DNA of 64,000 bases from Deltaproteobacteria bacterium. GTDB taxonomy: Bacteria > Desulfobacterota > WTBG01 > CAIYCZ01 > CAIRTM01. Shown one piece after another: positions 276 through 63,607 of the stretch (position 1 is its first letter; each line of letters opens with the position of its first letter). A model generated the notes under the pieces. It was given only the letters and a program-made list of their open reading frames with translations, made no database searches and was not told the origin of the DNA. Where the stretch lies: assembly GCA_016875025.1 (NCBI GenBank), contig VGSH01000001.1, positions 30,174 to 94,173 of the forward strand, written 5' to 3'. The position numbers were made by a program, and so were the translations under genes.

Positions 276-580
276 GCACCGGATGCGCAGGTTGGTGAAG
301 CCTGCGGGTGAAGGTCGTGTCCTCTGCCGTGCAGTGCCGCGCCCGGCAGCAGGCAGTTGGGTAAGGCCTCAAGGGGCTCTCCAGGCAGTGCGCCCCGCAG
401 GGCGGCTGCTGTCTGCCGGGCGATCAGCCGGTGGGTTACCTCCCTGGGCATGCCGCTTTCTCTCAAGATATGTGCATATCAGCTTGACCGGTTGCGGGTT
501 CATAGTATAGTAAAGACCTGCCGGGCAGGTCAACAGCAATAACAAACCGGCAGCGCTTTTCAGCAGGGGATGGCAGCCGT

Positions 581-1186: not shown

Positions 1187-1204
1187 AGTGCAGATGTATC
1201 AGAT

Positions 1205-1480
1205 TTGTCCAAAATAAATTATTGGATCGCTGCTGAAGGCCCTCTGGCCGGGGCCGTGCCGTCCCATCCGGCAAAGAAGACCTCATTTCATGTTCGGCCC
1301 GTGTGCCGGAATATTTCAAACGGGCCAGGCACGCCCCCGCGATTGTTGTATACAGCAGTGAGCCCGGGCCGTGTATACAATGAATTTTACAGGACGTGCC
1401 GTTGCATCGGCAGTGCAAAAACTGCCGGATGGGACGGCACGGCCCCGGCCAGAGGGCCTGTTCTAAATTATTTTGGACAC
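1205..1480 (+). repeat. MITE-like palindromic intergenic element, copy A
   Basis: Terminal inverted repeats GTCCAAAATAAATTAT / ATAATTTATTTTGGAC. Internal 36-bp perfect inverted arms at 1238-1273 and 1423-1458. A near-identical inverted copy lies at 49594-49877, with further copies at 33641-33925 and 61993-62035. The six-frame ORF across it is judged spurious. Confidence 0.8.
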
Positions 1481-1592
1481 TACTGCAGATGTATATACAC
1501 GTGAACGTTGATCCTTCTGTTCGGGGTCGGCAGCGAAATCGAGTGTTTTACACTACCGTTTTCGATGCATCGTATACTGTCGGAGAACGTCG

Positions 1593-23967: not shown

Positions 23968-24301
23968 GCTCTCTCAGTGTGCTGGTGCCATGGTGAAAAA
24001 GTGAACGATAACCCTGACATGCCTGTCTGGTGTGGCTGCAAAATTTCAGCCGCTTACCAGAGCACGTTATAACAATTCATGGGTGTAATCGCAAGACTGA
24101 AAAAAGCCATGTTCTGGTTTGGAAGGTCTGGCTTTTTAAATGTATTCTGAGGGCGGATAATATCTTTTGTTTTCCGCCGCGCAAAGGAGTAGTATGGTGA
24201 CACATGCAGACGTCCTTCCGCATGACCCGCGCCGGGATTTTTCCGCTGTGTTCTCTCATACACAGGCTTTTTTAACAATGCCCATTTCAGCAGGAGCTTT
24301 T

Positions 24302-25528
24302 ATGGAAAACAAAAGAATATTCATAGGGAATTTAGAATTCTCTGTGACAGAGGATGATGTGAAAAGCCTTGTGGCGCACTACGGTGCTGTTGTGTCGGTT
24401 AAAATGAATCGTAAAAAAGGCTTTGCGTTTATCGAGATGGATACCGCTGAAGCTGCCGCACGAGCGGTGCAGCAGCTTGACGGCATAAAGCACAGGGATC
24501 GTGAAATCCGCCTGAGCTTTGAAATGAAAGCCGCCAAGGCGAGGTTCGTATCGGCAAAACGATACAAAGAGCGCGGTGATGCTTTTGCCCGGCACAGAGC
24601 CGAAGCTCTGCCTGACCCGGAAAGACTGTTGTCAGATGAGCGGCAGCCGTATCCGCGTCGTGCTGAACGGGGCGGCGGCCGGCCGGTTTATAAACGCACA
24701 TCGGGGCCGGATGCGGGCGTTGGGTCGCGCGGCCGCTCAGGCGCTGCAGATGCGCGCCCGGCGCGATCATATCAACGCGATGCCGGAGCAGCGTCGCGGC
24801 CTGCTAAGCGTCCATGGTCCGAAGAGAAACCGTCCTATCCGCGCCGGCCAGACCGTGATGGTGAGCGGCCGGTTTATAAACGCGCGCCGAAGCCTGATGC
24901 GGGCGTTGCTCCGCGCCGGAGACCAGGCGATGCAGACAGGCGTCCGGCGCGATCATATCAACGCGATGCCGGAGCAGCGTCGCGGCCTGCTAAGCGTCCA
25001 TGGTCGGAAGAGAAACCCTTGTATCCGCGCCGGTCGGCAGGCGCGGGCGAACAGACTGCATACAGGCGCACACCGAAGCCGGATGCGGGTTTTACACCGC
25101 GCGGGGGCATGCGCGCTGCAGACGCACGGCCGCCGCGAACCTGTCGGCGCGATACAGGCGCACCCGGACGGCCTGTCAGACGTCCATGGTCGGAAGAGAA
25201 ACCCTTGTATCCGCGCCCGGCTGAACGGGATGGCGGACGTGACGGATATGCACGGGCTCCGAAAAAAGAATGGCCTTCAGCGCGACCGTCGCGACCCGCA
25301 GTGAAAACAGGCGAGCCCCGGGGAGAGCATTCTCAGAGAAAAAAAATATCTGGCGGCAAGCCGCATGATGTTTTAAAACAGAGGCCTGCAGGCGGTACGC
25401 ATGGCAAATACAGGAAACCGTCGCGTCCGGGCGCGCGTCGTGCAGCAGGTACTTCAGCCCCATCCCGACACAAAGTCCGCGGCAATTCACAGGATCGCGG
25501 CACCCCCCGCAAAGAGACTGAGCAGTAA
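24302..25528 (+). CDS. RRM-domain RNA-binding protein with a long basic/Pro-rich C-terminal tandem-repeat tail
   Basis: N-terminal RNP motifs IFIGNLEFS and KGFAFIEM. The C-terminus contains about 3.5 copies of a 57-60-aa repeat (PxYPRR...RPVYKR...PKPDAG...RPWSEEK). Confidence 0.6.
   Translation: MENKRIFIGNLEFSVTEDDVKSLVAHYGAVVSVKMNRKKGFAFIEMDTAEAAARAVQQLDGIKHRDREIRLSFEMKAAKARFVSAKRYKERGDAFARHRAEALPDPERLLSDERQPYPRRAERGGGRPVYKRTSGPDAGVGSRGRSGAADARPARSYQRDAGAASRPAKRPWSEEKPSYPRRPDRDGERPVYKRAPKPDAGVAPRRRPGDADRRPARSYQRDAGAASRPAKRPWSEEKPLYPRRSAGAGEQTAYRRTPKPDAGFTPRGGMRAADARPPRTCRRDTGAPGRPVRRPWSEEKPLYPRPAERDGGRDGYARAPKKEWPSARPSRPAVKTGEPRGEHSQRKKISGGKPHDVLKQRPAGGTHGKYRKPSRPGARRAAGTSAPSRHKVRGNSQDRGTPRKETEQ
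24646..25290 (+). repeat. in-frame tandem repeat array (about 171-180 bp unit, about 3.5 copies) inside the RRM protein gene
   Basis: Near-identical DNA blocks, e.g. gcgatcatatcaacgcgatgccggagcagcgtcgcggcctgctaagcgtccatggtc recurs. Coding, not CRISPR. Confidence 0.8.
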
Positions 25529-26905: not shown

Positions 26906-27259
26906 GACGTTTTTTTTCCTATAAAGCATACCGCGGGTTTGTTCGGGTCCTGCTGCCATTCGTGTGGGGCCGGTTCCGGCATACGTTTCATGGAGCATCA
27001 GGCGCGGGTCCTGTTTTTTTGTAAACATACATAACCCGGGTAAGGTTTGTCAATCGGAAATACACAGCAGGAACTGTTTGCAAACTTAATTTTTAGTGTT
27101 AAAATCCAATCCGTTTCTCTGATAAGCAGTCTTGTTGAATCAGCAGTGTCCAAGACAATGTAAACAGGCCCGGCCGGCAGGGCTCACCACGCTGCTCCGG
27201 TAATCTATATTAGTCAGATCTGCTATTGAATAATTATTTTTAGAAAGGTCGATGCTCTC

Positions 27260-33615: not shown

Positions 33616-33640
33616 AGTTTTATATCCTGCATTATTTCTT

Positions 33641-33925
33641 TCCAATATACATTACTGGAGCAGCCTGAAAAGCCCTGCCGGCCGGGACGCCTCCGGCGCA
33701 TCCGGCACACAAGAACTCATTGTATAATCGGCCCGTGTGCCGGTATATTTCAAACGGGCCAGGCACGCTGTGCTATTTTTGTCTGCAGCAGCGCGCCCGG
33801 GCCGTGTACCAACTGAAATTTACATGGCGTGCCGTTGCATCGGCAGTGCAACAACTGCCGGATGCGCCGGAGGCGTCCCGGCCGGCAGGGCTTATGCAAA
33901 TTATTTTGGTTAGTACTGATCCTTT
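33641..33925 (+). repeat. MITE-like palindromic element, diverged copy C, in the clpB upstream/leader region
   Basis: The shared core ggcccgtgtgccgg.atatttcaaacgggccaggcacgc is in the same orientation as copy A. The 36-bp arms (33667-33702 and 33851-33886) differ from copy A but remain exactly complementary to each other. The left TIR is degenerate and the right TIR is aaattattttgg. Confidence 0.7.
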
Positions 33926-34131
33926 CTGCTTTCGTGTTTACTTTGCTGGTGCGTGTTTGATATCATGGCGGCTGACCTGATATACAGACCGCCTTTTGTA
34001 TGCATTAAAAACAATAAGTACGCAGCGAAAAAAGTCAACGCTGGAAGTCGGGCACACTGCTTCTGCCGTTTTGCGGCCGGTATCGTGTGCCGGAGCCGTT
34101 GACCGTTGCGGCTTCCCTTGCAGGTGCGACA

Positions 34132-49477: not shown

Positions 49478-49593
49478 CGTTCGGATGCAGGCATTCTTGA
49501 ACTGATCGAAAGCACAGGTGTTACAACCTGTGTTTTTTTGTTATACTTGCCATGTATATGGAGTCATGATTATACTTATTATAATGGAACAGT

Positions 49594-49877
49594 GGTGTCC
49601 AAAATAATTCAGAACAGGCCCTCCGGCCGGGGCCGTGCCGTCCCATCCGGAAGTTTGTGCACTGCCGATGCAACGGCACGTCCTGTAAAATTCATTGTAT
49701 ACACGGCCCAGGCGCACTGCCGTAGACAACAATCGCGGGGGCGTGCCTGGCCCGTTTGAAATATTGCGGCACACGGGCCGAACATGAAATGAGGTCTTCT
49801 TTGCCGGATGGGACGGCACGGCCCCGGACAGAGGGCCTTCAGCAGCGATACAATAATTTATTTTGGACAAATCTGAT
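49594..49877 (-). repeat. MITE-like palindromic element, copy B (inverted relative to copy A)
   Basis: About 95% identical to the reverse complement of 1205-1480, including both TIRs and the 36-bp arms. The ORF across it (49541-49870) mirrors the ORF across copy A, so it is spurious. Confidence 0.8.
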
Positions 49878-49893
49878 AATGGAATAAGCTGCC

Positions 49894-53348: not shown

Positions 53349-53448
53349 GGGCAGGTGCTGCTCTCTTTGCCAAAGGGGGATTGAAAAGCATCCTGCATGC
53401 GGCACTACGACAGCTCTCCGCGGCAGATGGGCCTTTTTCAACAGCCTG

Positions 53449-60302: not shown

Positions 60303-60717
60303 CTTACAAGCCCGTTAATGTCAAAAGACGGCGGACATGTTCCTGCAACGTATCTATCGCAAATTATCAGGTTGTTGAAAAAGTCATTTCAAACAGGCTG
60401 TTCAAAAAGGACCGGACGCAACGCCGCAGATGGGCCTTTTTCAACAGCCGTTATAAGTTATGGGCGGTAGGGGCAGGGTATGCCGTGCCCCTGCTGTATG
60501 CCGCAGTAATGAATGACGCGCACAATGCGGCAGGCAGGCAGGCATTTTTCAAAAGCCTTTTAAATTTCATATACCTGCCGGACACATCTTTCATACTGCA
60601 TGCTTTTTTCTTTGACAGCCGCGAAACCCGGGTCTATAGTCTTCGCAAATCGGCACAACATCAATATATCGTCAAATAACGGACACAAAATATCTATTGG
60701 TAAACAACCGTATTCGT

Positions 60718-61992: not shown

Positions 61993-62035
61993 CGCAGCAG
62001 AGGGCCTGTTCTAAATTATTTTGGACACTACTGAA
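61993..62035 (+). repeat. solo terminal fragment of the MITE-like element (copy D)
   Basis: agggcctgttctaaattattttggacactactg is identical to the right end of copy A (1450-1483). Confidence 0.6.
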
Positions 62036-62062: not shown

Positions 62063-63607
62063 ATGAATAGAATTCGCAAAAACGTGCTTTCAACTATAGA
62101 GATTATCAGCGGGAAACGTTATATTCTGCTGTCCGCAACCGTACTGTGTTTGCTTTTAATCAAGGTAATAAACGGTTTTTGGGTAGGTGATTTCTGGCTG
62201 CACAGTGCTGTTGTCCGGGAATTCTCTTTAAATCCCTTTTCCCCTACAAATCCTTTCCTCCCAGTAAACACGCAACATTTTTATCACGGCCCATATCATT
62301 GGATAGTCGGCTTTTTTGCAAAGGTATTCGGATTATCATCGATCACAGCGCTTGGCTGTATGGGCCTGTTAAACTTTGCTGTTTTTTCATACAGTCTCCA
62401 TCTGTTCTGCCGCATGCTGAATACAGCAAGGCATACCGCCTTCTACGCTCTTGTGTTTTCATTAGTCTTATGGGGAGAGCATCCATGGCTGTACAGCAGT
62501 TTTTTTCACCTGCAGACAATCGGGTTCTGCTTTCCCTATCCTTCCTTTTTCTGCATCGGCCTGGCCTTATTGTCCTTTGCCCTGTTCATTGAAACATTAC
62601 AACACAATAAAAAATTTCTATTTTTATCTATTATTCCACTCTCCGCAATCGTCATGCTTTCACATACAAGTACAAGTATCGTTTTGTTCGCCGGGTTGGG
62701 GATTATTCTGATCTCCAACAGCTCACTCCTGACAGTCGTGAGAAATTCGATAAAGCTCACAGTGATAATTCTTTGCACATTGGGACTGGTATACCTGTGG
62801 CCCCACTTGTCCCTGTTTGCACTCTTGTCGCAAAAAACAAATTTTGTGTCACATTATATCCTCGATGACCTTACACTTTACAGGGATGTGCTCGCCAAAA
62901 TATGGCCGACACTATTTACAGTTCCATTCATTATTATTCGCCTGTACAAAAACCCCAAAGATACGCTGGGGTTACTGTTTCTCGGCTTTTCCGCTGTTTA
63001 TTTCTGGGGATTCTTTACAAAACAATGGAGCTATGGCCGATCCATTGCACAAACGATTCTTATAGCACACATAATATTTGCAGACTGGTTTGCTTCCTTA
63101 AAGAGCCGCAGCGACATCCCCCGGGATATCCGTTATGCGATTGCCGCTTGTATGATCATCCTTTTGCTTGTTTCCATGCGCAACCTGCCTGTGACCTTCT
63201 GGAGCCAATATCGTATTCAAAAAATTCCGGAATACAGTAATCTGAATTTTATTGCGGAACTAACGCATCGAGAAAATATTGTCTTAACAGACAGATACAG
63301 TGGAATTCTTGTGCCTTCCTTCGGGGGCAAAGTGGTCGCATATGATTTAATTTACAAGGGCCAGGAGCCTTTTGTATCTGACGGCATGGGTCGTATTAAA
63401 GACATGGAACATTTTTTTGATGAAAAAACGTCAGCATTCGATAGAAAACAAATTTTAAAAAAATATAATGTTGGCTTTGTTTTAATAAACAGGGATATCA
63501 CTCCTCTTCATTTTTCTTTGTCCAGTTTTTTAAAGGATAACGGCAGCGTTGAGTACGATAGAGAGCAATATGTTTTATTTTCCATCAACAGACCCGATAC
63601 CCAATAA
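62063..63607 (+). CDS. polytopic integral membrane protein, unknown function (possibly a glycan polymerase/GT-C-like)
   Basis: 514 aa with at least 10 predicted TM segments. About 40% GC, against a window average near 60%. Confidence 0.45.
   Translation: MNRIRKNVLSTIEIISGKRYILLSATVLCLLLIKVINGFWVGDFWLHSAVVREFSLNPFSPTNPFLPVNTQHFYHGPYHWIVGFFAKVFGLSSITALGCMGLLNFAVFSYSLHLFCRMLNTARHTAFYALVFSLVLWGEHPWLYSSFFHLQTIGFCFPYPSFFCIGLALLSFALFIETLQHNKKFLFLSIIPLSAIVMLSHTSTSIVLFAGLGIILISNSSLLTVVRNSIKLTVIILCTLGLVYLWPHLSLFALLSQKTNFVSHYILDDLTLYRDVLAKIWPTLFTVPFIIIRLYKNPKDTLGLLFLGFSAVYFWGFFTKQWSYGRSIAQTILIAHIIFADWFASLKSRSDIPRDIRYAIAACMIILLLVSMRNLPVTFWSQYRIQKIPEYSNLNFIAELTHRENIVLTDRYSGILVPSFGGKVVAYDLIYKGQEPFVSDGMGRIKDMEHFFDEKTSAFDRKQILKKYNVGFVLINRDITPLHFSLSSFLKDNGSVEYDREQYVLFSINRPDTQ

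Follow-up and report, generated by a model that had tools for sequence, protein, structure and literature searches.

Background

Several families of mobile or repeated bacterial DNA have been described that resemble the repeat reported here. The Chunjie element of Geobacter uraniireducens Rf4 is 178–235 bp long, possesses 21-bp terminal repeats and 9-bp direct repeats, and has very stable predicted folds (Chen et al. 2008, summarized in PMC3184786 and PMC10969869). QMITE2 of Coxiella burnetii has direct repeats of 7–9 bp, terminal inverted repeats of 23–29 bp and a core of 113–145 bp, and is accompanied by many truncated REP-like copies (PMC10969869). The bcr1 repeats, known from the Bacillus cereus group, keep a long double-stranded structure through compensatory changes of base pairs, and the ends of Correia elements can supply promoters, with transcripts that fold into hairpins altering the fate of the mRNA (PMC3184786).

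Here we report a repeat family from an uncultured, sulfate-reducer-like Desulfobacterota lineage, found in a 64-kb stretch of DNA that was analysed as a whole and is referred to as the window. Proteins of the window match exactly MBM4309351, MBM4309352 and MBM4309398, which belong to a metagenome-assembled genome labelled 'Deltaproteobacteria bacterium'. The nearest named homologues of the ClpB protein encoded in the window are from Desulfobacterota metagenome-assembled genomes (73%) and Desulfatiglans (68%). We consider the repeat, with a probability of about 90%, to be a MITE family, made up of DNA transposons of 286 bp that are non-coding and non-autonomous. A preliminary description had also taken it for a non-autonomous miniature inverted-repeat element, a reading that is now backed by 9-bp duplications at 11 sites, by two pairs of filled and empty sites and by insertion sites in metagenomes. 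These results provide a well-documented MITE family, with exact ends, 9-bp duplications and filled/empty pairs, for a lineage that is poorly known; the element itself is of an ordinary kind and reveals no new type of system.

Structure and Copies of the Element

Three copies and a solo end had been recognized in the window, and comparison of the window with itself confirmed all four. Copies A and B are 96% complementary across 289 nt, copy C is 78–81% identical to copy A in two long blocks, and fragment D matches the right end of the element at 91% over 45 nt; the relatedness of copies A to D is far above chance. A fifth member, copy E, had been missed. The true ends of the element also lie 5 bp further out on each side than the preliminary description had placed them, because the target-site duplications set them there, and each full copy is 286 bp long.

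Copy A (1200–1485, plus strand) is a full-length, A-type member of the young subfamily with the ends CAG...CTG, located between a GDT1-family gene and zupT. Its target-site duplication, CAGATGTAT, is found at 1191–1199 on the left and at 1486–1494 on the right. Copy B (49590–49875, minus strand), likewise A-type and of full length, is inverted and flanked by ATAATGGAA at 49581–49589 and 49876–49884. Copy C (33633–33918, plus strand) is a full 286-bp copy of the older C-type. Fragment D (61998–62035, plus strand) is a solo right end of 38 nt, composed of the terminus and the 10 nt of the right arm that adjoin it, and is matched by positions 251–286 of the family profile (E=4e-07); it lies 27 nt upstream of an open reading frame (ORF) at 62063–63607. 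Copy E (27141–27222, minus strand) is an internally deleted C-type copy of 82 bp that has kept both termini and lost the core: the deletion junction falls inside the GGCCGG-rich stem, and everything between the outer parts of both arms is gone. The 9-mers that flank copy E, TTGTTGAAT and CTATTGAAT, match at 7/9 positions.

The element consists of AT-rich terminal repeats, short linkers, a GC-rich internal inverted repeat of 37–38 bp and a 149-nt core with two near-invariant blocks. The terminal inverted repeats, which had been given as 16 bp, are instead an imperfect 23-mer (CAGATTTGTCCAAAATAAATTAT versus CAGTAGTGTCCAAAATAATTTAG, 18/23 matching) with CAG/CTG tips and a perfect 12-bp core, TGTCCAAAATAA, whose 12 pairs are 94.6% paired across 14 copies. 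In copy C, the terminal CAG has been lost. The internal arms had been described as exactly complementary, 36 bp long and about 150 bp apart. Exact complementarity holds for copy A, in which the GC-rich left arm of 37 bp (1237–1273, plus strand) pairs with the right arm (1423–1459, plus strand) at 100% complementarity across a distance of 149 nt, and for copy C, in which a perfect left arm of 38 bp (33670–33707, plus strand) pairs with 33856–33893 and differs from the A-type arm with all differences compensated, but not for copy B, in which 35 bp are complementary at 94%.

The element has no sign of coding capacity, as judged from indels of 1, 3 and 9 nt among the aligned copies and from a short ORF start in copy A (the ATG in CATGTT), which was seen by eye to read CATTTT or CATTAT in most other copies. 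Identity with a known named repeat or family of non-coding RNA would have refuted the preliminary description. Rfam was searched and returned no gathering-threshold match over the window; copy A gave nothing at E≤10, and copy C gave only matches of ~10–15 bits at E≥2. One metagenome copy (locus L007, 1799–2080) lacks a target duplication and has a central core segment of ~40 nt, with 3 nt deleted, that has been replaced or has diverged; the termini, the stem and core blocks 1 and 2 of this copy are all intact.

Other repeated sequences were also observed in the window. A second short intergenic repeat, unrelated to the MITE, occurs at 60364–60450, 60530–60557, 53419–53446 and 2637–2666, with the recurring motifs ...TGTTGAAAAAGT.ATTTCAAA... 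and CGC.GCAGATGGGCCTTTTTCAACAGCC. Since GTTGAAAAAG and CTTTTTCAAC are reverse complements of each other, the stretch at 60364–60450 looks like a hairpin-type repeat unit of ~90 bp. Three tandem units of 186 nt (100%, 80% and 66% identity) are found at 24631–25188, within an ORF at 24167–25528 that encodes an RRM_1 RNA-recognition motif (Pfam), which is unusual in a bacterial protein.

Insertion Sites and Recent Mobility

A 22-mer taken from the core was used to scan metagenomes and matched 14 contigs, two of which represent the B locus, one the C locus and 11 other loci. In all, full or near-full copies occupy 15 distinct sites, 3 of them in the window and 12 in metagenome contigs; two fragments come in addition, and the flanks of the 14 loci that were compared (A, B, C and 11 from metagenomes) are all different. 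The search for target-site duplications that had been proposed in the preliminary description was positive, with a length of 9 bp. The flanking 9-mers are identical (9/9) at eight independent sites (A, B, L006, L009, L010, L011, L016 and L017), for which the chance of a match is ~4e-6 per site, and agree at 8/9 positions at three more (L012, L014 and L018). At copy C they agree at 6/9 positions; comparison of the 9-mers at L007 and L015 revealed no duplication, and L019, where the element runs off the end of the contig, was left out of the scoring. The target 9-mers are AT-rich and intergenic, and often have AT or TAT at the end adjoining the left end of the element.

Direct comparison of filled and empty sites was possible with two contigs of a sister genome, L021 and L022, which come from one sequencing run (ERR14788459) and are 93–94% identical to the window. 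In L021 the site of copy B is empty: 121 bp lie upstream of aroB, versus 416 bp in the window, and a single ACAATGGAA stands in place of ATAATGGAA-element-ATAATGGAA. In L022 the site of copy A is empty, with a single CAGATGTAT and a distance from the GDT1-family gene to zupT of 111 bp, versus 406 bp in the window. At both sites, the difference between filled and empty is 295 bp (286 + 9). The site upstream of clpB is empty in four relatives (L023, L024, L025 and L027), whose ClpB proteins are 87–90% identical to that of the window. In the sister strain, the contig that approaches the clpB locus breaks off within the adjacent gene. A profile built from 14 copies found no copy in ~79 kb of DNA from relatives, compared to five members in the 64-kb window, and the element thus appears to be restricted to its lineage.

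These observations showed that the element inserts into AT-rich intergenic 9-mers, which are duplicated in the process, and that sister genomes differ in whether an orthologous site contains it. The element is recently mobile. The A-type copies are young, being ~95–97% alike, flanked by perfect duplications and polymorphic between sister genomes. Since the insertions differ between genomes that are ~93–94% identical, they can serve as a strain-level marker.

The same sister genome differs from the window at one further place. Compared to window positions 317–328, L022 (1975–2746) contains ~770 bp of extra sequence, and a Zn-dependent phospholipase C-family gene (PF00882) lies for the most part within it. 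Because these ~770 bp are present in the sister genome, the gene appears to have been deleted in the window and kept in L022.

Two Subfamilies, the Stem and the Core

Copies C and E share derived features of the left end, namely AATATA.ATTAC.GGAGCAGC and an arm beginning with AGCCCTGCCGGCC, and we regard them as an older subfamily because their duplications are degraded. The parts of the element have diverged between the two subfamilies to very different degrees. When the A-type consensus is compared with copy C, identity is 57% in the left terminus and 76% in the right terminus, 74% in the left arm and 68% in the right arm, 98% in core block 1 and 93% in core block 2, and 75% in the middle of the core. 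Such conservation of the core blocks above that of the termini would be unusual if only binding of the ends by a transposase mattered, and the core may have a further function. Inspection of the core by eye for a sigma-54 promoter, an IHF site or a conserved small ORF gave no convincing match.

In the stem, each difference between the A-type arms and those of copy C is matched in the opposite arm. The A-type and C-type stems share 30 in-register pairs, and nine double-sided changes were counted among these, eight in copy C and one in L014; such a number was not attained in any of 500 shuffles, and controls in which the arms were slid gave 0–2. In the consensus RNA structure of the core, no pair has changes on both sides, and a 9-bp helix of TTGTATACA and TGTATACAA that copy A is predicted to form in its core is interrupted in B, C, L007, L009, L015 and L016. 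Single-sided substitutions in the stem exhibit no strand bias, with ~3 events that give G-U on the plus strand and ~2 on the minus strand, and so there is no sign of selection on one RNA strand in the young copies. Folding z-scores are about -10 to -12 for both strands, whether folded as RNA or as DNA. The stem of copy C is intact at 38/38 pairs, and the stems of young A-type copies have 0–3 mismatches in 37 pairs; a flawless stem in the old copy next to mismatched stems in younger ones is not what simple neutral decay would leave of a dead transposon.

Neighbouring Genes and Promoters

All copies had been described as lying immediately upstream of genes. This is the case in the window; several metagenome copies, however, follow stop codons or lie between genes that converge, and an upstream position is therefore no property of the family. 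At three of the ~15 insertions, the element ends very close to a start codon. Copy B is 18 nt upstream of that of aroB (49894), copy C is 17 nt upstream of that of clpB (33615, minus strand), and the copy in L011 is 17 nt upstream of that of another gene. The corresponding gaps are at window positions 49876–49893 (B) and 33616–33632 (C) and at L011 9623–9639. In each case, the duplicated 9-mer overlaps the purine-rich ribosome-binding region (ATAATGGAA for B, ATGCAGGAT for C and ATACAGGAG for L011). These insertions near ribosome-binding regions could reflect a target preference or an effect of tolerance.

Copy C is located between the conserved promoter region of clpB and its ribosome-binding site. 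A promoter-like TTGACT-16-TATTGT and other upstream motifs of clpB are conserved in relatives, and all of them lie beyond copy C. On the minus strand of the window at 33925–34040, TTGACTTTT...CTTAT.GTT, CCATGATA.CA.ACA and AAGTAAACACGAA are conserved with relatives whose ClpB proteins are 87–90% identical, and these motifs probably make up the native promoter and leader of clpB. At aroB, it is copy B that has promoter-like sites and an upstream terminator on its far side. With the native promoter-like sites on the far side of the element, aroB and clpB would have to be read through a 286-nt hairpin-forming leader or be transcribed from a start inside the element.

At B, C and L011, the element would thus become a long hairpin in the mRNA leader, or its AT-rich end would supply an outward promoter. 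Candidate sites for the latter were found by scanning for the consensus, in copies B and C immediately outside the stem. The left end of copy B contains a sigma-70-like site, CGGACA-18-TACAAT (49825–49854, plus strand), directed toward aroB, and the left end of copy C contains another, TTTTCA-16-TATATT (33644–33671, minus strand), directed toward clpB; each agrees with 9/12 consensus positions. The same scan gave no comparable outward match in copy A. Two substitutions are found only in copy B, GGCCAG to GGACAG and GATCCAAT to GATACAAT, and each improves one hexamer, a pattern suggesting that, with the native promoter displaced by the insertion, a replacement was selected for. Donation of promoters to aroB and clpB by the ends of B and C is hinted at by these sites, and effects of the hairpin on the aroB and clpB leaders are something that we infer only. 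Among known elements, the hairpin transcripts of Correia repeats are subject to processing by RNase III.

The genes aroB and clpB and the gene next to the L011 copy provide natural test cases of tolerance to an insertion of 286 nt that forms a hairpin directly at a ribosome-binding site. Read-through, processing and a new outward promoter are candidate mechanisms for this tolerance.

Identity and Mode of Movement

The element possesses every structural feature of a MITE: a size below ~500 bp, no sign of coding, terminal inverted repeats, a duplication of fixed length, and dispersed copies with insertion polymorphism. The exception is a partner transposase, none of which was found in the window. 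In agreement with the preliminary description, which had reported the window to be free of transposase genes, no transposase domain was detected in the 27 window ORFs that were scanned with Pfam, and the other genes of the window are syntenic housekeeping genes. The ORF adjoining fragment D gave a weak GDSL-lipase-like match and no transposase.

Other searches for the source of the element were also negative. No stray termini outside MITE copies were present in the 27 loci that were fetched. BLAST of the whole element and of the left terminus against a plasmid collection found no relevant match and no parent insertion sequence, and neither the right terminus nor core block 2 had a match in scans of viral contigs. 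An exact 19-mer from the core had three chance matches in coding DNA among species-representative genomes, none of them in Geobacter, and the family is thus absent from species-representative genomes as far as that exact word goes.

IS4- and ISAs1-type families generate 8–10-bp duplications and have CA or CAG ends, as summarized in ISfinder. The 9-bp duplication and the CAG termini of the element suggest a DDE enzyme with 8–10-bp staggered cuts, such as one of the IS4 or ISAs1 type. The element would be moved in trans by such a DDE-type transposase, which would make 9-bp staggered cuts and be encoded elsewhere in the genome; it is from the 9-bp duplication alone that we infer both the mobilisation in trans and the transposase family. 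The complementarity of the internal stem may have been retained because foldback matters for propagation, for example by bringing both ends together.

Alternative Explanations

The flawless stem of the old copy C and the conservation of the core blocks above that of the ends fit three readings: selection on the foldback and core in the course of transposition, with intact master copies being the ones that propagate; templated correction of quasi-palindromes; or selection by the host on copy C in the clpB leader. Templated correction of quasi-palindromes is an established mutational mechanism in bacteria, studied by Ripley and by the Lovett laboratory. The perfect stems might accordingly be a by-product of replication, in which template switching perfects imperfect repeats and compensatory changes arise with no function attached. 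Such a process would produce matched changes on both arms with no strand bias and would explain the absence of an RNA-like signal in the core. However, the mismatches in the young A-type stems have gone uncorrected, and several of them are common to different copies (e.g., columns 49/252 and 74/226), so that correction cannot be fast, and the conserved core blocks are left unexplained; we consider this by-product explanation unlikely, though with a real chance of being correct. It is somewhat less probable still that the stem and the two near-invariant core blocks form a selected module, be it a transposition foldback with protein-binding sites or an RNA hairpin domesticated in the clpB leader in an immobilised copy C. 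If true, the domesticated hairpin would account for the flawless 38/38 stem of C beside the mismatched stems of younger copies.

In a broader proposal, the element would above all be a module of structured RNA, non-coding or cis-regulatory, that acts for instance as a leader hairpin or processing site; its mobility would be incidental, and copy C would be a domesticated part of the clpB leader. This proposal draws on the very strong fold z-scores, the compensation of the stem between subfamilies, the 93–98% conservation of the core blocks while the termini diverged, and the perfect stem of C in spite of its decayed termini and 6/9 flanking 9-mers. Copies B and C, moreover, lie between promoter region and ribosome-binding site and are probably transcribed. 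Yet the core has no covariation, single-sided stem substitutions have no strand bias, copies are found in either orientation and in every kind of intergenic context, positions downstream of genes among them, and Rfam contains no match; in addition, the target duplications and empty sites show spread by DNA transposition, and for MITE-like repeats, bcr1 being an example, compensatory changes have been described before (PMC3184786). We regard a primary RNA role as improbable. The GC-rich perfect palindrome, the intergenic positions and the many copies would also be expected of a REP/REPIN-type palindrome that a RAYT enzyme, an IS200/IS605-like tyrosine transposase, moves in the form of single-stranded DNA. 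Against this stand the 9-bp duplications at 11 sites and the inverted repeats at the termini, as REPs and REPINs have neither a duplication nor AT-rich terminal repeats; the element is also far larger than a REP doublet, and no Y1 transposase was present in the 27 window ORFs scanned. Such an identity is highly improbable, and the REP/BIME/ERIC alternative offered in the preliminary description is not needed, because the duplications point to cut-and-paste or copy-in transposition. As for the copies being assembly artefacts or collapsed repeats, one Logan contig (L005) does break inside copy B. The same filled B site with its unique flanks, however, is found in L004, L013 and L020, in independent NCBI, JGI and ENA assemblies, and this rules out an artefact for practical purposes; each copy also has private substitutions and a 9-bp duplication of its own, and the chance of an artefact is next to nil. 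A family of non-autonomous DNA transposons remains the reading that we favour.

Comparison with Known Elements

Of the systems described so far, Chunjie of Geobacter appears to be the closest in type, a judgement made by description only. Like the present element, Chunjie is non-autonomous, resides in a delta-proteobacterial (Desulfobacterota-related) host, and has 9-bp direct repeats and terminal inverted repeats of ~21–23 bp; it occurs in dozens of intergenic copies along with truncated ones. The predicted folds are about -98 to -130 kcal/mol for Chunjie and about -157 for the present element as RNA. The two differ in size (178–235 versus 286 bp) and in composition, as Chunjie is described as A+T-rich whereas the present element has a GC-rich core with a perfect internal stem of 37–38 bp.

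Compared to Correia elements (CREE/NEMIS) of Neisseria, which are also MITEs often found just upstream of genes, the present element is larger (Correia elements are 104–157 bp) and duplicates 9 bp rather than TA; Correia elements have 26-bp terminal repeats and no separate long GC-rich internal stem. Promoter and hairpin activity is known for Correia elements, whereas the promoter sites of the present element are consensus matches. The bcr1 repeat is similar in being MITE-like, in being flanked by direct repeats and in the compensatory changes of its long helix, but it is ~155 bp long, has 5-bp direct repeats, belongs to Firmicutes and has no sequence relation to the element. The architecture of QMITE2 is the same as that of the present element, although its host is different, its size is ~190 bp and its sequence is unrelated. 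REPINs and REP-BIME repeats resemble the element in being GC-rich, palindromic and intergenic and in having kept their hairpins complementary; in contrast to the element, REPINs are moved by RAYT, have no target-site duplication and lack AT-rich inverted repeats at their termini. Collectively, these comparisons lead to the well-supported conclusion that the element represents a new MITE family of a familiar kind, with a resemblance to Chunjie in its described features.
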